Assembly (NCBI GenBank): GCA_030603245.1
Contig: JAUVYE010000004.1
Location: 1 to 54,239, forward strand
Length of the DNA: 54,239 nt
Origin: a bacterium
Lineage (GTDB): Bacteria > Patescibacteriota > Minisyncoccia > Minisyncoccales > DG-74-3
Reading direction: 5' to 3'
Shown: in pieces, positions 1 to 8,470 of the stretch
How positions within the stretch are numbered: the stretch's first letter is position 1
Layout of the letters: each line of letters starts with the position of its first letter
Notes under the pieces: generated by a model
What the model saw: only the letters and a program-made list of their open reading frames with translations
The model's database searches: none
Told to the model about the DNA's origin: nothing
Position numbers and translations under genes: made by a program

Positions 1-88
1 TTCCTTTTTTTGTACACGATTTTTGGAGCTTATATCGTCCTCCTTCTCTTATCCACTCCCAGATTGAAGTGATTGTCTCGAACTTCAT
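1..88 (-). CDS. Hypothetical protein, 5' part only (MKFETITSIWEWIREGG...), runs off the window
   Basis: ATG at 88-86, frame open to the window edge, downstream of TTGACA(132-127)-17nt-TATAAA(109-104). Confidence 0.45.
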   Translation of the reverse strand, partial: MKFETITSIWEWIREGGRYKLQKSCTKKG

Positions 89-103
89 TTTTAGTCTATT
101 TGC

Positions 104-132
104 TTTATATCTCCAAACTATAAATTTGTCAA
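104..132 (-). promoter_or_regulatory. sigma70-type promoter of the cassette left of site R1
   Basis: TTGACA-17 nt-TATAAA on the minus strand. Confidence 0.6.
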
Positions 133-140
133 TATTAAAA

Positions 141-159
141 CTCGAGAAAAACTCTTGGG
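141..159 (-). terminator. Degenerate copy of the conserved CCCGAGA-N5-TCTCGGG hairpin
   Basis: ctcgagaaaaactcttggg, followed by the same caaaaatacga spacer as the copy at 1981. Confidence 0.55.
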
Positions 160-170
160 CAAAAATACGA

Positions 171-204
171 GCTCCTCTGGTGCAACGTTGTTAGAACCTG
201 TTTT
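171..204 (+). repeat. att-like site R1
   Basis: gctcctctggtgcaacgttgttagaacctgtttt. Confidence 0.85.
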
Positions 205-343
205 ATATTGAATTAAATAAAAAAAGTGCCAAAGATGGGTATGGCACCTCTTTTGTTTTAATGTGGTTCAATTAATGTATTAATCCGAAACCTTGACAAA
301 TCGAGAAAAAATGATTAAAACAACATTAAAGAGGTGAGAATAG

Positions 344-724
344 TTGGAAAATGAAAAAACGAACCAGAACCGAACGACCATTATAACAATCCTCGTAATT
401 GTGGTCATTGTGGCTCTGGGAGCGTGGAGATATTCTGGCTGGTTCAAGGTTCACGAAGAACAAGTAGTTATCAAAGAAGCGATTAGGAAAACAGCTGGCG
501 GAGAAACCCGAGAGGTTGAATATTTCCTCTATACCAATAAAGGCTACTTCAAGGTTGGCGGCCCAGTAGATGCAGAAGGAATTCCCTATGTCTGGCAACT
601 TGCTAAAGAAAATGAAAGGAAGCTAGTGCTAATCAGATATTATGGAGGCGGCGTATGGCGTATAGATGCCTGGGGATACTATCCAGTCGCCTATGAAATA
701 CATTCTGTACCAGAAACATCCTAG
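344..724 (+). CDS. Membrane-anchored hypothetical protein (paralog of 750-1088)
   Basis: GAGGTG RBS before TTG, N-terminal TM helix, TTGACA at 293-298; shares T[ND]KGYF..GG/RG..D..GI..Y[YF]G..YP motifs with the next ORF. Confidence 0.75.
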   Translation: MENEKTNQNRTTIITILVIVVIVALGAWRYSGWFKVHEEQVVIKEAIRKTAGGETREVEYFLYTNKGYFKVGGPVDAEGIPYVWQLAKENERKLVLIRYYGGGVWRIDAWGYYPVAYEIHSVPETS

Positions 725-749
725 AATAAAGATCCGAGTGGTGTAAGAC

Positions 750-1088
750 TTGAATCGACGATTTAAAGCAACGATAATCCTCTTAACGCTCTTTGTTATC
801 TTCGGAGCATTGTTCTTCCTTCCTAAAACAGAAAAGGTTGTAGTTCTTGGAAAAATACAAAAAAAGAGCTGGTTCTCCCTTCCTGTTATAGCAGAAAACA
901 CGCTAACTCTCATTATATCAACTGACAAGGGTTATTTCTATGTTAGAGGAAAATTTGATTCAGATGGCATAAGACATATCTTCAAAAAGCTAGAAATCGG
1001 GAAAACTTACGAAATATCGTACTTTGGCCCCAGATGTAATGCTATCTATTTATACCCATTTATCTCTTCTTTTAAAAAAATTACATAA
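750..1088 (+). CDS. Membrane-anchored hypothetical protein (paralog of 344-724)
   Basis: N-terminal TM helix; TDKGYFYVRG, DSDGI, SYFG, LYP motifs shared with the upstream ORF. Confidence 0.7.
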   Translation: MNRRFKATIILLTLFVIFGALFFLPKTEKVVVLGKIQKKSWFSLPVIAENTLTLIISTDKGYFYVRGKFDSDGIRHIFKKLEIGKTYEISYFGPRCNAIYLYPFISSFKKIT

Positions 1089-1215
1089 ACCCTAACAATC
1101 TTCAGAAAATCTCTAGGAAGAAAAAGCTCCACACAAACAAAAGCTATGAATAATATTTTCATAGCCCTTTTTTTTAGCTTTTTTATCTAAAAAACAATCT
1201 AATTTTACAAAAAAA

Positions 1216-1234
1216 CCCGAGAAAAACTCTCGGG
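1216..1234 (-). terminator. Conserved hairpin CCCGAGA-AAAAC-TCTCGGG
   Basis: 7-bp perfect stem followed by a T-run on the minus strand. Confidence 0.7.
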
Positions 1235-1244
1235 CAAAATAGGT

Positions 1245-1278
1245 GCTCCGGGGGCTGGACGACATTAGAACCTGTTTT
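1245..1278 (+). repeat. att-like site R2
   Basis: gctccgggggctggacgacattagaacctgtttt. Confidence 0.85.
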
Positions 1279-1300
1279 ATGAGTCTTTAAAAACAGTTCA

Positions 1301-1561
1301 TTAGCACATAGATACAAACGAGGCGGCTAATAATCCCATAATTATTCCTAAAATTGCAAACCATTTCCCTTTTTGCTTTTTTGTTCTCATCCAAATTAAA
1401 GCTATTATTCCCATAAAAACAGCTCCTAGTCCAGCTATACTATTAACCTCAGAACCACATTCTTTGGCAGTAAATACATATACTAAAGCAAAAATTGCGA
1501 TTAGAAAACTAAAAATTGCTAAACCATTTGTCTCTTTCATGAATGTTTTAATTTTTTCCAT
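1301..1561 (-). CDS. Small membrane protein, DUF4190-like
   Basis: TNGLAIFSF...GIIAL...QKGKWFAILGIIMG pattern typical of DUF4190. Confidence 0.75.
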   Translation of the reverse strand: MEKIKTFMKETNGLAIFSFLIAIFALVYVFTAKECGSEVNSIAGLGAVFMGIIALIWMRTKKQKGKWFAILGIIMGLLAASFVSMC

Positions 1562-1610
1562 ATTATCTTATTTTACCAAAAAAACTAGCTAAGTGACAAG
1601 ACAAAAATTT

Positions 1611-1644
1611 GCTCCCCCTATTGGACGCGTTCAGAACTATTGAT
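1611..1644 (+). repeat. att-like site R3
   Basis: gctccccctattggacgcgttcagaactattgat; first 27 nt identical to R4. Confidence 0.8.
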
Positions 1645-1759
1645 TGGAGAAAAATTAAAGAAAAGCTTAGAAAATTAGAGCCTATTTTATTGAAGATTTA
1701 AATAAAAAAGGGGCTATCCTTGTTTTTAGATAAACCCGTAGGGACTTTTGAGTAGTAGT

Positions 1760-1924
1760 TCAGCTCTTCATGGAATTACATTTCAGACAATGCACACCCA
1801 TTGAAGTATGCTGACACTCTTCCTCTCTGTATTTTTGAGTAGCATGACATTCTATGTCTATCTTTCCTCTTACCTGCACTGGTAGACCGTTAATCAAGAG
1901 TTGCTGAAGTGGTGCCAATTTCAT
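1760..1924 (-). CDS. Small Cys/His-rich hypothetical protein (MKLAPLQ...HCLKCNSMKS)
   Basis: AAAGGAG RBS before ATG at 1924; TTGACA at 1966-1961; the longer ORF-track start overlaps the hairpin and is unlikely. Confidence 0.55.
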   Translation of the reverse strand: MKLAPLQQLLINGLPVQVRGKIDIECHATQKYREEECQHTSMGVHCLKCNSMKS

Positions 1925-1980
1925 TTCTCCTTTTTTGAAGATTATCAAATTCAAACAAATTGTCAATAACCAAGCAAAAA

Positions 1981-1999
1981 CCCGAGATAAACTCTCGGG
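1981..1999 (-). terminator. Conserved hairpin CCCGAGA-TAAAC-TCTCGGG
   Basis: 7-bp perfect stem plus T-run on the minus strand. Confidence 0.7.
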
Positions 2000-2010
2000 C
2001 AAAAATACGA

Positions 2011-2044
2011 GCTCCCCCTATTGGACGCGTTCAGAACCGTGGAT
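2011..2044 (+). repeat. att-like site R4
   Basis: gctccccctattggacgcgttcagaaccgtggat. Confidence 0.8.
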
Positions 2045-2212
2045 TGGAGGAAAATAAGGGAAGAATTGGAGATTTTCAGGATTAGAATGCCTGTGGTTAA
2101 ACGATGTTAGAGCCTGTTTTATAAGGAATTTGGCTTAAGATGCCGTTTTGAGTGTAGGGAAATTAAAAAAAAGCGGTCTGAGACTAGCTCATACCGTCCT
2201 TGATTCGTGAAT

Positions 2213-2491
2213 TTATTTCTCTTCTAGCCTAGTGACCCTTTCTTTTAATCTCTCGATCTCCCAATCTCGCTTTTCTTGCCTAGCTTGAGAGATAATAATT
2301 CCTAGTTTACCGAGTTCAAGCCTATTCTTGCACTTCCAACAATCCCTCAAATGATCTGTTGCTTCTCTTATTTCTCCATCTTTTGGATTAAAGATTTTCT
2401 CCCAAGTTTCTTCACTGATCGGAGCATTCAACAGGCTCTTAATTTCTTCTATTCTTTGATTAGTCAGGGTTCTAGCTTTTTTACAATCCAT
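2213..2491 (-). CDS. Small zinc-finger protein (zf-HC2/anti-sigma-like C...HxxxCxxC)
   Basis: AGGAG RBS before ATG at 2491; MDCKK...DHLRDCWKCK motif. Confidence 0.6.
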   Translation of the reverse strand: MDCKKARTLTNQRIEEIKSLLNAPISEETWEKIFNPKDGEIREATDHLRDCWKCKNRLELGKLGIIISQARQEKRDWEIERLKERVTRLEEK

Positions 2492-2564
2492 TATTCTTTC
2501 TCCTAAGGAACTGTCTTCTTTAAAATTCACAAAAAAAATCAAGTCCTGTAATGGCTTGGAGTTT

Positions 2565-2598
2565 GCTCCGGGGATGGTACAATATTAGAACTTGGTTT
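2565..2598 (+). repeat. att-like site R5 (divergent)
   Basis: gctccggggatggtacaatattagaacttggttt; GCTCC and AGAAC spacing conserved. Confidence 0.75.
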
Positions 2599-2674
2599 TG
2601 GGAAAATTTACCAGCGATTGAATCTAAACTCATTTTCCAGAAACACAAAATAGTATCAATCTAACCTTACTAAA

Positions 2675-3334
2675 TTATATATTAAAAGTACTAAGTAGCC
2701 AGGTAGTAAGCTTTGCTACATACGGTGCAATTGTCGCAATATTTGCCAACATTCCTAGATTTGCCTTTGCTTTTGCAAGAATACTAGTATCTGGTTCTTT
2801 TTTTGCGAGTTGGCTTTTTATAGTTTCTAAATCTCCTTGAATTGAAATTTTTTCTCCATCACTTAACTCTCCAAGCGCATTTACGCGACGACGCAAATCT
2901 TCAGCAAGCTTATGACCTTCTGAAAAAGCAATATTGGAAATACTCGTAACATTATTATTACTTCCAATAACTATAAAATTTCCGCTACCTGAAATGTCGC
3001 CAATTCCTGCAAAAACGTTAGAACGATCAAACTTTGATCCATGCTCAAAATAACCTAATCCGTCCCGAGAAAGTCTGTATTTATAAGTTGGTTTAGCACC
3101 TCCAAATTTCTTCTTTGCAAAATAGTTTTCAACAGGAATTTCTTCAACAAGTTTATTTTGCACTAAAAAAGTTACATTTGCTGCTACTTGATTTTCTTTT
3201 ATTTCCGATAAATGCTCTTTAACTAAACGAGCAAGATTGCGTACGCCAACCATTTGAGATGTACGACTTCTTCCACCCTGATGTAGCTGGTATAAGCTCT
3301 CTAGAATTTTCTCTCTTATTAAATCTTCTTCCAT
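2675..3334 (-). CDS. Hypothetical protein with winged-helix-like N-terminus and helical C-terminus
   Basis: 219-aa ORF; REKILESLY...FLVQNKLVE...YRLSRDGL resembles a wHTH. Confidence 0.7.
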   Translation of the reverse strand: MEEDLIREKILESLYQLHQGGRSRTSQMVGVRNLARLVKEHLSEIKENQVAANVTFLVQNKLVEEIPVENYFAKKKFGGAKPTYKYRLSRDGLGYFEHGSKFDRSNVFAGIGDISGSGNFIVIGSNNNVTSISNIAFSEGHKLAEDLRRRVNALGELSDGEKISIQGDLETIKSQLAKKEPDTSILAKAKANLGMLANIATIAPYVAKLTTWLLSTFNI

Positions 3335-3576
3335 ATTTTATTAAATTTATTAATTTTCTTAACAATATCATTTGTCGCCTTAAATTTATCATTTCTAATT
3401 TAAAAATCAAACCAACTTTCTTTTATCTTTTGTAGAAAAACTGTGGTTAAAATAAAAATCATAGGTAAAATCAGATCCGTCCAGTCAAAAAGAAAATCTG
3501 CTGTTCCCAAAGTCTAGGAAAAAAGGATTTCTAAATTAGAAATTTCAAAAATACTAGTAATGTCAACAAGTATATT

Positions 3577-3837
3577 CTACTTTCCTTTGTGTTGGCTTTT
3601 GGCTCCTTTTTCACGGTTTTCTTCCCAGTGCAGTGGCTGAAGGTTTCTTATATTGTCGGTTCCACCCTTGTCTTTGGGGTTTTTATGGTCAATTTCCCAT
3701 CCATATTTTCCTTCAGTCCCATATGAAGCTTTCCTGATCTTATTGCCATACGTATCTTTGCCCCATCCTTCTGGATTTTTCCCGCGAATAGGTTTTGCCT
3801 TATCCCACACTTTTTCTATTGTTTTTTTGGCAGGCAT
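3577..3837 (-). CDS. HNH endonuclease, small stand-alone type
   Basis: WEIDHKNP..KGGTDNIRNLQPLHWEENREK HNH motif. Confidence 0.9.
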   Translation of the reverse strand: MPAKKTIEKVWDKAKPIRGKNPEGWGKDTYGNKIRKASYGTEGKYGWEIDHKNPKDKGGTDNIRNLQPLHWEENREKGAKSQHKGK

Positions 3838-4007
3838 AGTAATTGAAAATTAATAAGAATTAGCGACCTTTAAAATAAAAACCGGGCCATCCCCGATTTG
3901 TCTTTTTGCTTAAATCGGAGGTGATAAAAGGTTAATGAACAGTAAAAATTATGTTTAAATTAACCTCCGATGGTGAAATATCTATTAAATTTTACCTTAT
4001 TGTAAGT

Positions 4008-4036
4008 AGTATAACATATTTTTACAAAATTTGCAA
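4008..4036 (-). promoter_or_regulatory. sigma70-type promoter upstream of the HNH gene
   Basis: TTGCAA(4036-4031)-17 nt-TATACT(4013-4008). Confidence 0.55.
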
Positions 4037-4103
4037 GTAAAAATTCGAACAAAAGCTCGGACTTATACAATTACATACAAATATATGCAATTTTATACAA
4101 TTA

Positions 4104-4137
4104 GCTCCCCTGATGCAACGTTGTTAGAACCTGTTTT
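4104..4137 (+). repeat. att-like site R6
   Basis: gctcccctgatgcaacgttgttagaacctgtttt; right arm near-identical to R1. Confidence 0.85.
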
Positions 4138-4192
4138 GTATTGAGTTAAATAAAAAAACCATCCAGTCGATGATTAAAAAAATGGGTGGGTA

Positions 4193-4534
4193 TTAGTTTT
4201 TTCGAGGCACTAGCACTTTATCGATCGATGACAGTCTAAGTCCATTTTCTTTGCAGAACGCTTGGAACTCCTGTTGTGTTTCAAAACACATCTCAACAAT
4301 ACTAGCATTAGTTAGTGTTGTTATATCCCCTAGATCATGATATTTTACGATCGTTACGTAGGCAATCTTACGACCACTTTTATAGTTTAAGACATGAGCA
4401 CGTGTCACAATCTTTGTGTCTATATAATTTTCCAATACCCACCCTGGAGTTGAGGTAGAATAAACCGTTATTCCTTCGATTGTGTCAAAACACCTGCTCC
4501 AAAGTTTATTTAAAAGAGCGATTATCTGCCTCAT
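4193..4534 (-). CDS. Hypothetical protein
   Basis: Fills the R6-R7 cassette; promoter TCGACA(4576-4571)-17-TATAAT(4553-4548) favours ATG 4534 over TTG 4543. Confidence 0.6.
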   Translation of the reverse strand: MRQIIALLNKLWSRCFDTIEGITVYSTSTPGWVLENYIDTKIVTRAHVLNYKSGRKIAYVTIVKYHDLGDITTLTNASIVEMCFETQQEFQAFCKENGLRLSSIDKVLVPRKN

Positions 4535-4582
4535 TTTTATCAACTAAATTATAACAAACAGAATATTATTTGTCGATAACTT

Positions 4583-4616
4583 GCTCCCCTGGCGGGACGA
4601 TGTTAGAACCTGTTTT
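4583..4616 (+). repeat. att-like site R7
   Basis: gctcccctggcgggacgatgttagaacctgtttt. Confidence 0.85.
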
Positions 4617-4827
4617 ATATTCAATTAAATCAAAAAACCGCCTATTAAGCGATTTTTTAATTCTCTTAATTTCTCCCCTTTTTCCAACTAATAATAGTAT
4701 GATTATTAGCTCGAAAAAAATTAGGGGAGAAGTAAGTTATTGGCTTAGTGAAAAAAGGGTGAATTTAAGGTACGATTGATTTTGTGCTCACAAAAATCTG
4801 CAAGAGTAATAAAGCCTATAATTCATT

Positions 4828-5322
4828 TCATTTGAAGAGATCAAGCACATTAGTCTTCACTGCGTCTTCAGCTGCTTTAGCTATCTCTGCCAGTGTCCCC
4901 GTCGACTTTAATGCTTCGGCCGTGATCACAAATATCATTGTTGCAGGATCGCCATCACTAACCCACACAATACCTCTATCTGTGAGCTCGTCATCCACGT
5001 CGCGGAAACTAATGTTTATTGTTTGCACTGGTACTTCTTCGCCTCTGGGGTTACACGACACCCCGATGTCATCGCCTCTGACTAGATCGATCTGTTCACC
5101 TGAACTGATCAACCTCACAATTTCTTTTCCAGGCTCGACGCCTCTTAAAACTTTCGCCTCAAGAGAAATCGGAAGTTTCGCTGTCAACCTAGCTAGCTCA
5201 AATTCGAATGTGGGTTTTTCAGCAGACAGAAGAGCACTCTCCAAGTCTTTTGTTTCAACGTTCTTCTGTGGATTTTCTGAAGCATCCTTTTTAGCCCATT
5301 GAATCCAAATATTATATTCTAT
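4828..5322 (-). CDS. Hypothetical protein; the frame stays open to an ATA codon at 5322 behind a strong SD
   Basis: AGGAGGAGG upstream of ATA; promoter TTGACT(5370-5365)-17-TAGTTT; the ORF track starts at TTG 5244. Confidence 0.55.
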   Translation of the reverse strand: MEYNIWIQWAKKDASENPQKNVETKDLESALLSAEKPTFEFELARLTAKLPISLEAKVLRGVEPGKEIVRLISSGEQIDLVRGDDIGVSCNPRGEEVPVQTINISFRDVDDELTDRGIVWVSDGDPATMIFVITAEALKSTGTLAEIAKAAEDAVKTNVLDLFK

Positions 5323-5378
5323 GGTTTTTCCCTCCTCCTAAAAACTACCAAATTGGCATGACCAAGTCAATACTAAAA

Positions 5379-5397
5379 CCCGAGATAAACTCTCGGG
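5379..5397 (-). terminator. Conserved hairpin CCCGAGA-TAAAC-TCTCGGG
   Basis: Identical to the copy at 1981. Confidence 0.7.
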
Positions 5398-5447
5398 CAA
5401 TATATCCACAACTTAACTCCCTATTTTAATTTAATTTCCACACATTA

Positions 5448-5481
5448 GCTCCGGGGGCTGGACGATGTTAGAACCTGTTTT
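5448..5481 (+). repeat. att-like site R8
   Basis: gctccgggggctggacgatgttagaacctgtttt; near-identical to R2. Confidence 0.85.
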
Positions 5482-5539
5482 GCCTTATAAAAAACAAAAC
5501 CGCCCCTTTAAAGAGACGGTTTTGCAATAATTAGTTCTA

Positions 5540-6100
5540 TTATTTTTCGTGTCCTTTGCTTTGAATCGGCATACCAATATGAGATTGAGCAGCTTCTTGT
5601 TTGTCTTCCTGTGAACTGACATATTGTCCGTGATTTCCTGTGAATTGCGTTGACTCTCTTGTAGCTGTACCTACAGTGGTCGTCCATGTACCCCCACGGG
5701 CTCCAAAACAATTATCTGTCCAAGTGCCACTAATTTTACCATCAACATCAATTTCTCCAACTAGAGTAAACGAGCAAGAAAGTAAATCATAATCAGCAGT
5801 CATATTAAAATCACTACCATCGACTAAACCATTGGTTACAGTCCATGGATACTGATAAGGTTCGATTGCTGAAAAGGCTCCACCACTACCTTCAAGCGTA
5901 CCATCTTCAGCTTGTACCAAATTCATGTCATGAAGGTTGGTACCTTCCATATAATGATAATCAAAAACCCAAACTCCGTTAACATCCCATGGTCCGTATT
6001 CTACTGGTCCTGGAACTCTGTCAACTTTTGCTCCTGCGATATTTACTAGAGCAAATAAAGACAGGGTTAATATAATGCTTCCAAAAATTATTTTTTTCAT
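5540..6100 (-). CDS. Secreted hypothetical protein (signal peptide, beta-rich)
   Basis: MKKIIFGSIILTLSLFALVNIAGA signal peptide; promoter TTGACT(6178-6173)-17-TAGTCT. Confidence 0.8.
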   Translation of the reverse strand: MKKIIFGSIILTLSLFALVNIAGAKVDRVPGPVEYGPWDVNGVWVFDYHYMEGTNLHDMNLVQAEDGTLEGSGGAFSAIEPYQYPWTVTNGLVDGSDFNMTADYDLLSCSFTLVGEIDVDGKISGTWTDNCFGARGGTWTTTVGTATRESTQFTGNHGQYVSSQEDKQEAAQSHIGMPIQSKGHEK

Positions 6101-6179
6101 AATTTTCTAATTTAATTTTTATTTTTCGACTTTGGCTTTTCTTACTTTTAGACTAAAACTCATTTATTGAAAAGTCAAA

Positions 6180-6198
6180 CCCGAGAAAAACTCTCGGG
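6180..6198 (-). terminator. Conserved hairpin CCCGAGA-AAAAC-TCTCGGG
   Basis: Identical to the copy at 1216. Confidence 0.65.
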
Positions 6199-6208
6199 CT
6201 TTTAAAAA

Positions 6209-6242
6209 ACTCCCCTGGCGGGACGATGTTAGAACCTGTTTC
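6209..6242 (+). repeat. att-like site R9
   Basis: actcccctggcgggacgatgttagaacctgtttc; right arm identical to R7 over ~32 nt. Confidence 0.85.
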
Positions 6243-6376
6243 ATTAAAACAAAATGGTCTTTTGATATACTGATTTTAGCTAATCCTTAGTTTACCCTAC
6301 CCTTCAACTCACTATTTATTTAAAAAATTGAAAAACAAGAAAAAAATGGTAAAATAATTTAATTATTTCTAAATTC

Positions 6377-6601
6377 ATGAAAGAACGAGAAGAAAAAATT
6401 ATTCGTACTATTTATCACGAAGAGACTAATCGTTTCTTCAAATCAATTGGGTTGTCTGAAAAATTAGAGAAGGGTGAACTCCAGTGCAATGTCTGTGGTG
6501 AAATAATAACAGTTACCAACTTTAGAGCAGTCACCCGTAAGGAGGGTGATTTGCTTTTCTGTTGTGATAAAGAATTATGTATGCAGAAATTTAGAACATG
6601 A
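6377..6601 (+). CDS. Small zinc-binding protein (CxxC...CCxxxxC)
   Basis: CNVCGE...FCCDKELC; ATGA overlap with the next gene. Confidence 0.75.
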   Translation: MKEREEKIIRTIYHEETNRFFKSIGLSEKLEKGELQCNVCGEIITVTNFRAVTRKEGDLLFCCDKELCMQKFRT

Positions 6602-7734
6602 ACACGAATTGGTTAAAATACATATTTGAATATGGACCATTAGCTTTAGCTATCCCTATATTCGAGTATTTTGGAACATCAGGTTTGATTTTCTTTATAC
6701 TTATAATAGTTATAATTCGTTTATTTGCGATAATACTAGATAAAGATCTTAATGAACGTTGGCGAGCGCGGTTCTACAAAATAATATATAAAATAAACGG
6801 AAGTAGTAATGCAGAGAAAAAATATATAGAAAATAATGCCTGTAGTCGTCTCAATCTTGCACGTCGCAAAATGCCATTCGAGAAAGAATATCTACCTAAG
6901 GCGATAAGAATAGAATGGTTTGGTGATAAAATAGGAAAAACTGCACAAATCAAAGAAAATGAAATTCTCATCCGTCTTGATCCAGCGGAAAGACAAGAAA
7001 AAAATATAGTTTTACTCGCCGATGCTTTAGTTAAAGAAACCTCTCTTATTGGGATTAGACATATTTTAAATGAAGCCTCAGAGGCTTCAATGGATTTAAA
7101 TCTCGTAAAAAGTCTACTTAAGGAAACTGGTGATAGAAAAATTTTGGATTGGTTCTTACGTAACGAATATCAAACAGCTTTAGGAAAAATAAATGGAATC
7201 GGGAAGTGGAACGAAGCGATTGTAGAAATTGATGAAAGGGGTCTATTTACCAGACTATTGCTTGTAGAACTAGAGTGGTTCTCTAAAAGAATTTCAGGCA
7301 GATCTTCTCCAGAATTTTTCAAAGAGGTTATAGGCTTGGTTAAATTCCTCTATAAAATAGCAACTAAGGTTTATAAACAAGATGTACCCTTAGAATATAC
7401 TTCACGAAATATAAAAATCGGCGTCATTCTTGTGGGAAAAACGAGTAAAATTCTTCGTAGAGGAATTGAACCTTTTTTGAAAGCGTTCATGTATCAAATA
7501 CAAAAACAGTTTACTTCGATATATGTTATTGAATTTGATAAAGAATTACTTGGTGTTTCAGACCCAAAAGCACATGAATACTTTATGAATTTAACGAAAA
7601 GCCTAACCAAGGAAATAGAGAAACGATTTGAAATTAAAAAGGACTTCGATCTTTCCTATGACTGCATTGACTCTATGGGTAGAAAAAGGCATGCAAAAAT
7701 TTGCCATTATATTCCTCACTATGCATTTTTTTAA
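6598..7734 (+). CDS. Hypothetical protein with N-terminal TM segment and large soluble domain
   Basis: 378-aa ORF translationally coupled to the upstream Zn protein. Confidence 0.8.
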   Translation: MNTNWLKYIFEYGPLALAIPIFEYFGTSGLIFFILIIVIIRLFAIILDKDLNERWRARFYKIIYKINGSSNAEKKYIENNACSRLNLARRKMPFEKEYLPKAIRIEWFGDKIGKTAQIKENEILIRLDPAERQEKNIVLLADALVKETSLIGIRHILNEASEASMDLNLVKSLLKETGDRKILDWFLRNEYQTALGKINGIGKWNEAIVEIDERGLFTRLLLVELEWFSKRISGRSSPEFFKEVIGLVKFLYKIATKVYKQDVPLEYTSRNIKIGVILVGKTSKILRRGIEPFLKAFMYQIQKQFTSIYVIEFDKELLGVSDPKAHEYFMNLTKSLTKEIEKRFEIKKDFDLSYDCIDSMGRKRHAKICHYIPHYAFF

Positions 7735-7773
7735 TAAAACAGCCTAGCGATGGGCTTTTAACTAATTCAAAAC

Positions 7774-7798
7774 AAAACAGGGTTTTTGACCCTGTTTT
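7774..7798. terminator. Rho-independent terminator-like hairpin
   Basis: aaaacaggg-tttttga-ccctgtttt. Confidence 0.65.
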
Positions 7799-7807
7799 CG
7801 CTTCTGA

Positions 7808-7830
7808 GCTCCGGCAATCGGACTCGAACC
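7808..7830 (-). other. tRNA 3'-end fragment (Asn/Gln type, U1-A72 with G73); att-like site R10 closing the array
   Basis: Minus strand GGTTCGAGTCCGATTGCCGGAGC = T-loop, 3' T-stem, acceptor strand and discriminator; the 5' part of the tRNA is absent. Confidence 0.65.
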
Positions 7831-7855
7831 TCCACCTAATAAGCACTTGATATGT

Positions 7856-8470
7856 TTAATCTAATAGTTTTTCCAATTCAACAATATCAGAAATCAAATA
7901 GTCTGGATTAGCTGCTTCTAACATTTCTTTTGGTTTGTGGCCCCAAGATATTCCTATTGATACTACACCTCCTTTTTTTCCAGCTTTAATATCATGTGAC
8001 ATATCCCCTACGTATATGGTTTCTTCTGGCTGAAAATTATTCCTTTGAAGAATCTCTGTAATCACTTTTGCTTTATCAAGGATATTCCCATTTATTTCCT
8101 GAAAATAATCAAACACTCTATATCTTTTAGCGTCTGCGATTATTTTTTCCTGAGAACCAGAACTCATTATAACCAGTTTAATTCCTTTATCGTACAATCT
8201 TTTAAGCACATCTTTTACCCCTGGATATAATCCTGTGTCACCAGACGCATCAAGACCTTCTCTAAAAAGCTTAAGTATTTGATCTTTAGTACAATCTGGA
8301 AAATGTTTTTTCCAGAAATTCATATAGGGCAGAGAGAATTTCTTTCTATACTCTTTAAAAGACATGGGCTTAACACCCAATTTTTCAAAAACATACATTG
8401 TAGCCTTATAAATTGTTGTCAGGTCATCCATCAGAGTTCCTGACCAATCAAATAGAATATTTTTAATCAT
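7856..8470 (-). CDS. HAD-superfamily hydrolase (phosphoglycolate phosphatase-like)
   Basis: LFDWSGTL motif I; YVGDMSHDI motif IV. Confidence 0.9.
   Translation of the reverse strand: MIKNILFDWSGTLMDDLTTIYKATMYVFEKLGVKPMSFKEYRKKFSLPYMNFWKKHFPDCTKDQILKLFREGLDASGDTGLYPGVKDVLKRLYDKGIKLVIMSSGSQEKIIADAKRYRVFDYFQEINGNILDKAKVITEILQRNNFQPEETIYVGDMSHDIKAGKKGGVVSIGISWGHKPKEMLEAANPDYLISDIVELEKLLD

Follow-up and report, generated by a model that had tools for sequence, protein, structure and literature searches.

In the SCC system, Ccr serine recombinases insert cassettes of 20-60 kb serially at the 3' end of one conserved gene, the protein gene rlmH, often with two Ccr proteins needed; direct repeats mark each boundary, recombinase-less cassettes exist and the att sites lie outside the recombinase gene (an account owed in part to the Dehalococcoides study cited below). 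The SSV-type archaeal integrases are tyrosine recombinases, split near the N-terminus, in which an att core matching the 3' part of a tRNA lies inside the gene, so that the gene is cut short on integration and pieces of its coding sequence remain at the island borders. For textbook large serine recombinases (LSRs), attP x attB is the only recombined pair. The ssrA islands of Dehalococcoides, as described by McMurdie et al. 2011 (PMC3146451), form a tandem downstream of a small RNA gene whose 3' end recurs as a direct repeat at the boundary of each island; their integrase is the large serine recombinase DsiB, a CcrB homologue, and some units without an integration module are proposed to be cis-mobilizable.

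The window considered here, the whole analysed stretch of 54,239 nucleotides from a Patescibacteria genome, holds at positions 1-7853 small gene cassettes in tandem, an array that has built up at a decayed tRNA-Asn 3' end. The sites in this array are P' halves of the attP of a Patescibacteria LSR family of ~495 aa (Resolvase + Recombinase + zinc-ribbon), and the stepwise accretion of inserts carrying such half-sites at the tRNA-Asn 3' end very likely explains the array as a whole. As in the SSV-type integrases, a tRNA-matching att core lies inside the recombinase gene and coding fragments are left at the borders, but the serine recombinase is deprived of no more than its last 11-35 codons, in place of which the tRNA complement supplies 2-3 codons and a stop. 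The likeness to sedentary chromosomal integrons extends to many unrelated single-gene cassettes of mostly unknown function, one site per cassette in the same orientation, exchange at the site edge and strain-specific content. Unlike integrons, the array has no IntI, its sites do not fold, its enzyme is a serine and not a tyrosine recombinase, insertion occurs at a tRNA end, and the cassettes, in either orientation, have their own promoter-like and terminator elements (by eye). With SCC it shares serial insertion by a serine recombinase, direct repeats at the boundaries and recombinase-less cassettes, but the target is a tRNA, the cassettes are small and att is part of the recombinase gene. Like the Dehalococcoides islands, it has stacked units, direct repeats, a serine recombinase and some units lacking one. 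The differences from those islands are a target of tRNA-Asn (also His, Gln or Leu) rather than tmRNA; a repeat that is an attP-type half-site with a 5-bp longer spacing and not a copy of the tRNA end; an attP inside the 3' end of the recombinase gene, with no second small recombinase in the related locus L082; and one-gene units as small as 0.1-1.6 kb. The literature, judged by title or abstract, yielded no description of such a system in Patescibacteria, which does not exclude that one exists.

Sites and cassettes in the window

Nine full sites are present in the window, all on the + strand, with the G of GCTCC at 171, 1245, 1611, 2011, 2565, 4104, 4583, 5448 and 6209, and small unrelated gene cassettes lie between them. 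Their placement in the earlier note was borne out: GTTAGAACCTGTTT with at most one mismatch gives seven matches, all on the + strand, between 190 and 6241, and with at most three mismatches 23 matches in the window, while 100 shuffled versions gave 9.5 on average and 18 at most. Searched against the whole genome (E<=0.01), the site profile gives 22 matches, on contigs C5 (10), C21 (7), C16 (3) and C4 (2), each on the + strand of its contig. Within this order 19 of 41 genomes have the motif, and in a sample from across the phylum 24 of 401 do.

The first site, R1 (171..203), is a P'-type half attachment site in which the frame from C172 encodes LLWCNVVRTCFILN and a stop. R2 (1245..1277), R7 (4583..4615) and R8 (5448..5480), likewise P'-type, encode the tails LRGLDDIRTCFMSL, LPWRDDVRTCFIFN and LRGLDDVRTCFAL, each closed by a stop, while the tail frame of the P'-type R6 (4104..4136) is broken (LP, then a stop). 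R9 (6209..6241), also P'-type, has A and not G at position 0 and the tail LPWRDDVRTCFIK... Three sites are longer: R3 (1611..1698), a long form of Rd type with the tail LPLLDAFRTIDWRKIKEKLRKLEPILLKI and a stop; R4 (2011..2120), a long-form doublet joining an Rd-type half-site (2011-2043) to a GCTCC-less canonical half-site (2090-2120) in a single open frame, LPLLDAFRTVDWRKIREELEIFRIRMPVVKRC and a stop; and R5 (2565..2661), of Re type, with the tail LRGWYNIRTWFWENLPAIES..., its first 15 nt being near the tRNA-Asn 3' end in sequence. No tail encoded by the window sites has a start codon. At R8, loose ends in four metagenome contig sets accumulate at 5448 (before the site) and 5480/5481 (behind it).

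The head of the array is a decayed tRNA-Asn 3' fragment on the - strand (7808..7853), a B'-type half-site that adjoins the stop of a HAD hydrolase gene at 7856 and has the usual 7-nt spacing of the T-loop. It agrees with the genome's tRNA-Asn in 19 of its first 24 nt and is not called a tRNA by ARAGORN or Rfam. Closest to it lies a + strand cassette (6242..7807) with genes at 6377-6601 and 6598-7734, the 378-aa product of the latter matching no Pfam family. A further + strand cassette (204..1244) has two genes of unknown family (344-724 and 750-1088), and between the two are seven cassettes (1278..6208) with genes on the - strand: 1301-1561 (weak DUF4190), 1760-2002, 2213-2542, 2675-3334, 3577-3837 (HNH endonuclease), 4193-4543, 4828-5244 and 5540-6100. 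For these seven, DNA matches in three same-genus genomes are restricted to sites and hairpins. A terminator-like hairpin of the left-flank family La lies at 141..159 (-), with other copies at ~1216-1234, ~1981-1999, ~5379-5397 and ~6180-6198, and a different hairpin precedes the pseudo-tRNA at ~7777-7795 (all coordinates by eye); a T run follows each hairpin, read on the gene strand. The cassettes are regularly built units with a terminator, a promoter-like region, a gene and a site, down to 0.1-1.6 kb and one gene in size, the promoter-like and terminator elements having been assigned by eye.

Recombinase tails and the tRNA target

Every site type, read from the C that follows the first G of GCTC (frame G-CTC), encodes the C-terminal tail of an LSR (..LPWLDDVRTCF, ..LPLLDAFRTVDW..), and this frame yields one peptide family for all site types. 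Two long-form copies in genome G035 differ by seven synonymous and two non-synonymous codons in frame G-CTC, the sole open frame with such a synonymous ratio. A profile of the tail peptide matched 75 proteins (E<=1e-3) among 1.84 billion, with the motif C-terminal in all, and several of these also hold the upstream C-terminal region of a serine recombinase. With P0075 as query, 153 longer proteins were obtained, of which the best 120 are nearly all ~490-530 aa long and contain PF00239 and PF07508, mostly with PF13408. Among the 120 listed of these 153, 59 stop 2-4 codons past the junction, 41 continue through a tRNA complement, 13 have a P' tail (e.g. ..CSNWLPGWDDVRTCFQ, ..CSSMLRELDDVRTCF), six end otherwise and one is without the motif. 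In this family attP falls within the 3' end of the LSR gene.

GCTCC is the complement of the tRNA-Asn 3'-terminal GGAGC, and the LSR 3' end overlaps an opposite-strand tRNA head-on in 23 of the 28 loci examined (of 78 returned), the tRNAs being Asn (18), Gln (3), His (1) and Leu (1). LSR genes abutting tRNAs and the match of GCTCC to the tRNA-Asn end together identify the window sites as P'-type half-sites in hybrid junctions. The serine recombinase, its absence from this genome and the tRNA origin of GCTCC are additions to the reading in the earlier note. In locus L082 the order is rpoD, tRNA-Asn, LSR (PF00239, PF07508, PF13408), 9.5 kb of cargo, a P' scar, a small cassette and a second scar, whereas L098 is a tandem of two copies in which the B-P', P-P' and P-B' junctions have only GCTCCC in common; both integrated elements have B-P' and P-B' hybrid junctions at their ends. 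The array lies directly 3' of tRNA-Asn, in matching orientation, in each of the four fetched array loci with a gene for this tRNA (G000 C21, G035, G003 and G027), and the DNA downstream of tRNA-Asn falls into the families seen in the left flanks of the sites. Units are stacked 3' of an RNA gene, each bounded by a direct repeat and some without a recombinase. Sites beside tRNA-His on contig C14 begin like the 3' end of tRNA-His but retain the ..DVRTCF tail. Counted from the G of GCTCC, T(A/C)GAACC starts at position 21 in sites versus 16 in tRNA-Asn, i.e. 5 bp further out. This matches the attP versus attB geometry of LSRs as given by Rutherford et al. 2013 (PMC3783163), where the ZD (zinc-ribbon-domain) motif is shifted by 5 bp, closer to the centre in attB than in attP half-sites, and by analogy T(A/C)GAACC may be the zinc-ribbon-domain motif.

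This genome (98% complete, 26 contigs) yielded neither a serine recombinase nor any PF00239 match, and the query used detected no serine recombinase in G003 and G035, two other genomes rich in arrays. The cassettes are therefore either relics or have been moved in trans. As the left flanks of the window sites contain no recombinase gene remnant, point decay of the recombinase gene in former islands does not by itself account for the cassettes.

Location of the exchange

The near-identical right arms reported earlier hold for R3/R4 (1611/2011), R7/R9 (4583/6209), R2/R8 (1245/5448) and R1/R6 (171/4104). Regarding the left arms, R1/R4 do share a hairpin and caaaaatacga (local score 30 versus at most 13 in shuffled 60-mers), whereas the 4-nt 'atta' proposed to unite R6/R8 is at chance level. 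The incongruence of left and right arms with a breakpoint at GCTCC was confirmed using permutation controls on 16 full sites of this genome, in which left flanks re-assort freely relative to the site interior and right flank, the switch falling at GCTCC. Among these 16 sites, pairs in the same right cluster have the internal variant in common in 8 of 12 cases (permutation mean 2.8, P=0.006), compared to 4 of 23 for pairs in the same left cluster (permutation mean 5.4, P>=0.82), and the right cluster is also common in only one of these 23; internal variants at positions 5-19 follow the right flank, never the left one. In both informative sites (6209 and C21:6295) position 0 (G or A) goes with the left flank; in related loci this base is the third of the last codon that belongs to the recombinase itself. 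In an alignment of 60 sites from eight genomes (64 matches minus four with TAGAAC off the expected offset), the G of GCTCC is exactly where information per column jumps, from ~0.2 to 1.45 bits, and values stay high through position 32. Across 20 recombinase/tRNA junctions the best dyad centre is 2.5, between T and C of GCTCC, a modest signal with a complementary fraction of 0.46 (10 positions) versus 0.12-0.40 at 26 other centres and a second peak (0.40) at centre 8; in L098, GCTGGACG is mirrored in eight of eight bases. Contigs of four other metagenomes have the same flank families joined to different sites, with GCTCC as the exact point of junction; the sides of these joints are short, and other organisms are their probable source.

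All the evidence puts the exchange within (G)CTCC. The segregation of variants, the behaviour of position 0, the L098 junctions and the pseudo-dyad centre all support the interpretation, advanced in the earlier note, of the window sites as hybrid junctions left by site-specific strand exchange within GCTCC. The exact crossover dinucleotide is probably TC.

A model for the array and its alternatives

Islands and small gene cassettes would have been inserted one after another at the tRNA gene end by an LSR. In the free element the recombinase gene reads across attP, which places its last 11-35 codons (..L-P/R-x-x-D-x-h-R-T..) beyond the crossover, and these are the codons that the sites still encode. 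Integration into attB, the tRNA-Asn 3' end, would fuse the recombinase gene head-on to the tRNA so that it then ends in ..LRG and a stop, while the P' tail would remain at the insert's other end, next to what had been the sequence downstream of the tRNA, usually a terminator hairpin. Repeated integration at the tRNA stacks inserts, and each internal site is consequently a hybrid with the left flank from the older neighbour and everything from GCTCC onward from the newer insert. The recombinase-less cassettes were presumably inserted as units by a recombinase acting in trans and are not decayed islands. To our knowledge, no LSR has been demonstrated to insert repeatedly at an occupied tRNA or to move a cassette with only a P' half, and L098 shows the existence of tandems only.

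A bolder and more tentative possibility is a serine-recombinase counterpart of the integron, in which a trans-acting LSR captures and releases single-gene cassettes singly at the tRNA-Asn 3' end. Each self-contained cassette would carry only a P' half-site joined to a terminator, one good half-site per partner (cassette P' and chromosomal tRNA end) would suffice, and each insertion would restore a terminator behind the tRNA and hence a fresh target.

It is unlikely that the array is passive debris of successive LSR islands decayed at tRNA-Asn, with cassettes that were never individually mobile and flanks re-assorted by homologous recombination or gene conversion between 33-bp repeats and common hairpins. 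Such a history agrees with the lack of a recombinase in the genome, with hairpin families and sites (33-75 bp) long enough for homologous exchange, and with three sites (4583, 6209 and C21:1800) that are identical over 33 bp and have unrelated flanks on both sides. However, the switch points lie at the left edge of the block and are not scattered through it, LSR gene remnants are absent beside the sites, the cassettes are regular units with no genes in common with same-genus genomes, and the joints in the four other metagenomes fall exactly at GCTCC.

An integron-like array run by a tyrosine recombinase, the genome's lone Xer-like enzyme acting on dif- or attC-like sites, is very improbable. 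The layout of one-way sites between single-gene cassettes is that of chromosomal integrons, a weak palindrome lies within the block, and the Xer-like protein (C22, 319 aa) is the only site-specific recombinase found in the genome. Compared by eye with the 11-6-11 layout of dif, the sites showed a match to an XerD-arm motif in seven of eight positions and no matching left arm. Yet this protein scores as XerD/XerC/XerA, reaching 89 bits, by its C-terminus alone, against the integron-integrase model (cut-off 265), it is encoded on another contig distant from all arrays, and at least one tyrosine recombinase (usually exactly one) occurs in 38 of the 41 genomes of the order, with or without sites. 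Single-strand folding is no better than in shuffles on either strand (eight folds of four regions, z -1.2 to +1.7), internal variants do not segregate as a central crossover predicts, and the sites encode an LSR tail. The flanks of the G035 arrays hold housekeeping genes only and no IntI-type recombinase. An identity as integron attC sites was rejected, given the lack of folding and the absence of an integron integrase.

Least credible of all is a transcribed 3'-UTR element, a tRNA-like fragment acting as RNA ahead of a terminator: most sites do lie between gene and terminator hairpin on the gene strand and resemble a tRNA 3' half, but T-arm pairing and covariation cannot be drawn, there is no Rfam match, site orientation is kept where cassette genes are reversed (204-1244 and 6242-7807), some sites lie behind a terminator, and the coding-type variation fits an LSR tail on the opposite strand.

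Significance

The genomes of Patescibacteria (CPR) are very small, and few mobile elements have been recognised in them. Stepwise LSR accretion would trace a recurrent hypervariable region of these bacteria to a defined recombinase family whose target can be read as a rule, namely the acceptor end of the tRNA for Asn, His, Gln or Leu; natural attP/attB pairs are also obtained. Integration that trims the recombinase's own C-terminus is unusual and could act as a switch. The array also raises the question whether an LSR can move cassettes with only half an attP. If the integron counterpart were true, the ultra-small genomes of Patescibacteria would own a dedicated platform for gene capture.

Array layout and gene cassettes

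The window comprises the first 54 kb of contig C5 in a genome of 548 kb (33% GC, 98% complete, 26 contigs), the placement of which in the Patescibacteria is taken from related records. Between 171 and 6241 it carries nine full copies of a 33-bp block, all on the + strand and composed of GCTCC, seven variable bases and then GGACGATGTTAGAACCTGTTT (R1 to R9, with the G of GCTCC at 171, 1245, 1611, 2011, 2565, 4104, 4583, 5448 and 6209), while a copy lacking GCTCC is located at 2090-2120. A truncated site remnant (flank family and aCTCC, followed by unrelated sequence) is also seen at 5414-5431, 34 bases ahead of R8. The blocks are separated by units of 0.4-1.6 kb with one or two small genes each, mostly on the - strand and mostly without known family, one of them encoding an HNH endonuclease. 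Arrays of the identical block type are present on contigs C21 and C16 of the same genome, and shorter runs on C4, C14 and C25. The array ends beside a conserved HAD hydrolase gene with a decayed tRNA-Asn end (7808; 19 of the first 24 bases identical), and the cassette adjoining this tRNA fragment encodes a 378-aa protein (6598-7734) that belongs to no Pfam family and has a hydrophobic stretch at its N-terminus, and the gene of which has no DNA match in same-genus genomes. The first ~140 bases are common to C5 and C21, which indicates that the assembly broke inside repeated array material, the shared start probably being a repeated cassette. The stretch in common (1-141 of both contigs) takes in a promoter-like region and the beginning of a gene on the - strand, and the two contigs diverge inside a hairpin (hairpin coordinates are by-eye readings).

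Re-assortment of the site arms

The earlier note had claimed that left and right site arms are re-assorted around GCTCC by strand exchange. The right-arm pairs it named (R3/R4, R7/R9, R2/R8 and R1/R6) and the left-arm pair R1/R4 are correct; the ‘atta’ match proposed for the left arms of R6 and R8 is too short to count. When the 16 full sites of this genome were clustered separately by left flank, internal variable positions and right flank, the left flank proved independent of both the internal variant and the right flank (4/23 and 1/23 concordant pairs, no excess over permutation), and the internal variant was found to be tied to the right flank (8 concordant pairs out of 12, against a permutation mean of 2.8; P=0.006). 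Conservation over 60 sites drawn from eight genomes sets in abruptly at the G of GCTCC, the left edge of the block, and weakens past position 32. The re-assortment is real and far beyond chance.

The sites encode the tail of a large serine recombinase

Read on the + strand in the frame starting from the C of G|CTC, all site types encode one peptide family: canonical sites give LPWLDDVRTCF, and long-form sites LPLLDAFRTVDWRKIREELE.. and LRGWYNIRTWF... Two long-form copies in the compared genome G035 show seven synonymous and two non-synonymous codon differences in this frame, the only open frame with that ratio. A profile of the site peptides retrieved 75 proteins among 1.84 billion, with the motif C-terminal in every one, and some of these bear ..EKRQLLNFLLQNLKL..ELKTPFD.. 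upstream of the motif, which corresponds to the C-terminal part of large serine recombinases (LSRs) of ~495 aa with Resolvase, Recombinase and zinc-ribbon domains. A search with P0075 gave 153 proteins of this kind, and tail classes were taken from the 120 of them that are listed. Of these 120, 59 stop two to four codons past ..KCSN(L/M/W), as ..LRG*, ..LRR* or ..LRW*, 41 read on as ..LRGQDSNLQP.., the translated complement of the tRNA T-loop, and 13 have the same tail as the sites in the window, e.g. ..CSNWLPGWDDVRTCFQ and ..CSSMLRELDDVRTCF; the remaining seven comprise six of other form and one without the motif. No full-length gene for the tail peptide is present in this genome or in the fetched arrays, where the sites are the only matches. 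A possible recombinase remnant is seen in another genome of the same order (G010:C5:48725-48976), as a solitary 90-aa open frame with one in-frame TAG that matches only the last ~85 LSR residues (48% identity).

Intact elements and the tRNA target

Out of 78 genome loci encoding such a recombinase, 28 were examined, and in 23 of these the 3' end of the LSR gene overlaps a tRNA gene on the opposite strand (18 Asn, 3 Gln, 1 His and 1 Leu). The other five are two loci cut by contig ends, one running into a tRNA-like stretch and then Ns, and two with a full tail. One intact locus (L082) has the order rpoD, tRNA-Asn, LSR, 9.5 kb of cargo (a restriction-modification fusion, VanY, DUF3800 and unknowns), long-form scar, 330-bp cassette and canonical scar. 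Another (L098, 2148-20857) holds a tandem of two identical 9.3-kb LSR-bearing elements at tRNA-Asn, the inner junction of which restores the first recombinase to its full 520-aa form. On the basis of this survey and these two loci we conclude, by sequence comparison, that the LSR gene spans attP, that the 33-bp block represents the P' half-site (of attP) and the tRNA end the B' half-site (of attB), and that the sites in the window are B-P' hybrids.

Among the 43 t(m)RNA genes of the genome (ARAGORN; 42 tRNAs and the tmRNA), tRNA-Asn alone has a complement starting with GCTCC. In all four fetched array loci with a tRNA-Asn gene (C21 of this genome, and G035, G003 and G027 among the compared genomes), the array lies downstream of rpoD and begins directly 3' of tRNA-Asn(GTT), its sites having the orientation of the complement of the tRNA 3' end, and the spacer and terminator hairpin downstream of tRNA-Asn belong to the same families as the left flanks of the sites. 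Shorter arrays are found at other tRNAs. On C14 (L022, 5990-6635, - strand), downstream of a tRNA-Arg/His pair, the sites start like the tRNA-His end and keep the ..DVRTCF tail, and on C4 (17749-17871), downstream of a tRNA-Met/Met/Asp cluster, one site mimics the end of tRNA-Gln, which is not adjacent. A P' half-site identity of the block accounts for the tRNA-His-like sites on C14, and it is in keeping with the copies resembling tRNA-Gln on C4 and C25 as well. The C25 copy is part of ~170 nt of non-coding sequence behind a conserved gene (L018, about 475-645, - strand), together with a second tRNA-end-like piece, a T-arm-like hairpin and a terminator at the end; the stretch has no Rfam match, and a homologous arrangement is seen in the compared genome G029 (L060, about 10906).

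The point of exchange

In the site clustering, positions 5 onward travel with the right flank, while position 0 travels with the left flank, being A instead of G at 6209 and C21:6295 with the site type unchanged. In the LSR genes, position 0 corresponds to the third base of the gene's own last codon, and one locus (L101) has A there. The three junctions of the L098 tandem (outer, inner and tRNA) have only GCTCCC in common, which limits the exchange to these bases. Across 20 junctions the best pseudo-dyad centre falls between the T and C of GCTCC (0.46 complementary vs 0.12-0.40 elsewhere), and the distance from this centre to an outer conserved motif is about 16-24 bases for the sites, against about 11-19 for the tRNA. 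The same distances and 5-bp shift between attP and attB are given for the zinc-ribbon motif of a Listeria phage integrase in PMC3783163. As these five observations on the exchange point agree, TC is most likely the central dinucleotide, and the strand exchange at GCTCC proposed in the earlier note is supported.

Formation of the cassettes

The left flanks of the sites are terminators and not recombinase remnants. In a paralogous cassette pair the terminator, promoter region and gene are in common and the upstream site differs, which suggests that a cassette is a unit of terminator, promoter, gene and P'. Insertion of such a unit at the tRNA would leave a terminator behind the tRNA once more and thereby recreate the target, which would account for the orderly stacking. 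This route would need a reaction between half an attP and attB, one that the LSR class is not known to perform. Alternatively, the cassettes may be what is left of islands that homologous exchange has trimmed and shuffled.

Neither a serine recombinase, an HUH (Y1) transposase nor a reverse transcriptase is found in this genome, and no LSR was found in the other array-rich genomes searched either; since MAGs often lose mobile elements, the absence of an LSR is weak evidence. The sole tyrosine recombinase of the genome is an ordinary Xer-like protein, and a link between Xer and the arrays was rejected, since 38 of the 41 genomes of the order have one or more tyrosine recombinases (in most cases a single one), whether or not they carry arrays. 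A recombinase encoded by a recurrent array gene was likewise discarded, the clustering of 364 ORFs from 15 array regions yielding small families only, without family annotation and none recurring across arrays. Nor are the sites genuine fragments of tRNA or tmRNA, as neither ARAGORN nor Rfam gives a hit there and the tmRNA gene lies on C7. Folding into RNA structures or ssDNA hairpins is likewise rejected, since no fold beats shuffles.

Distribution and relation to known systems

Of 41 genomes in the same order, 19 contain a 21-base core (≤3 mismatches), for which a reversed control pattern gives one match; at the level of the phylum, an 18-base core (≤2 mismatches) is present in 24 of the 401 genomes sampled. 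Two arrays of about eleven sites each are carried by G035, which consists of one contig of 517 kb. Three genomes of the same genus contain no DNA match to the cassette genes. A 346-aa cassette gene on C21 (L019, 2427-3467) shares 90.5% DNA identity with one in G029 (L061, 13-1053), a genome of a different family; behind the gene lies a canonical site in the one genome and a tRNA-type site with an extra hairpin in the other. This suggests that the gene may have been transferred recently and its site module swapped; as the downstream site types differ, the left boundary of the cassette is not fixable from this pair. In contigs of four marine-sediment-type metagenomes (each 6-7% of sampled words) the block is a repeat with sharp ends and some of the cassettes are present. 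These contigs also hold other combinations of flank and site joined at GCTCC; the joints are short, probably derive from other organisms and are weak support for exchange at this point. Among viral contigs the one exact site match, which lies beside a GC-rich stretch without Rfam hit or recombinase, was uninformative; in the IMG/VR contig L081 (5500-6030), a canonical site borders on ~500 bp of GC-rich non-coding DNA amid AT-rich surroundings, with no Rfam match.

In the literature searched, judged by title or abstract, no description of such a system in Patescibacteria is apparent. The layout is similar to that of a chromosomal integron, but the defining integron features tested were not found here. 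The nearest described systems are SCC composite islands and the tandem ssrA islands of Dehalococcoides with a CcrB-like serine recombinase, the latter as described in PMC3146451. The present arrays differ from known systems in host group, in the tRNA-Asn target, in very small cassettes devoid of a recombinase, and in an attP lying inside the LSR gene, such that integration swaps the tail of the protein for LRG-stop.
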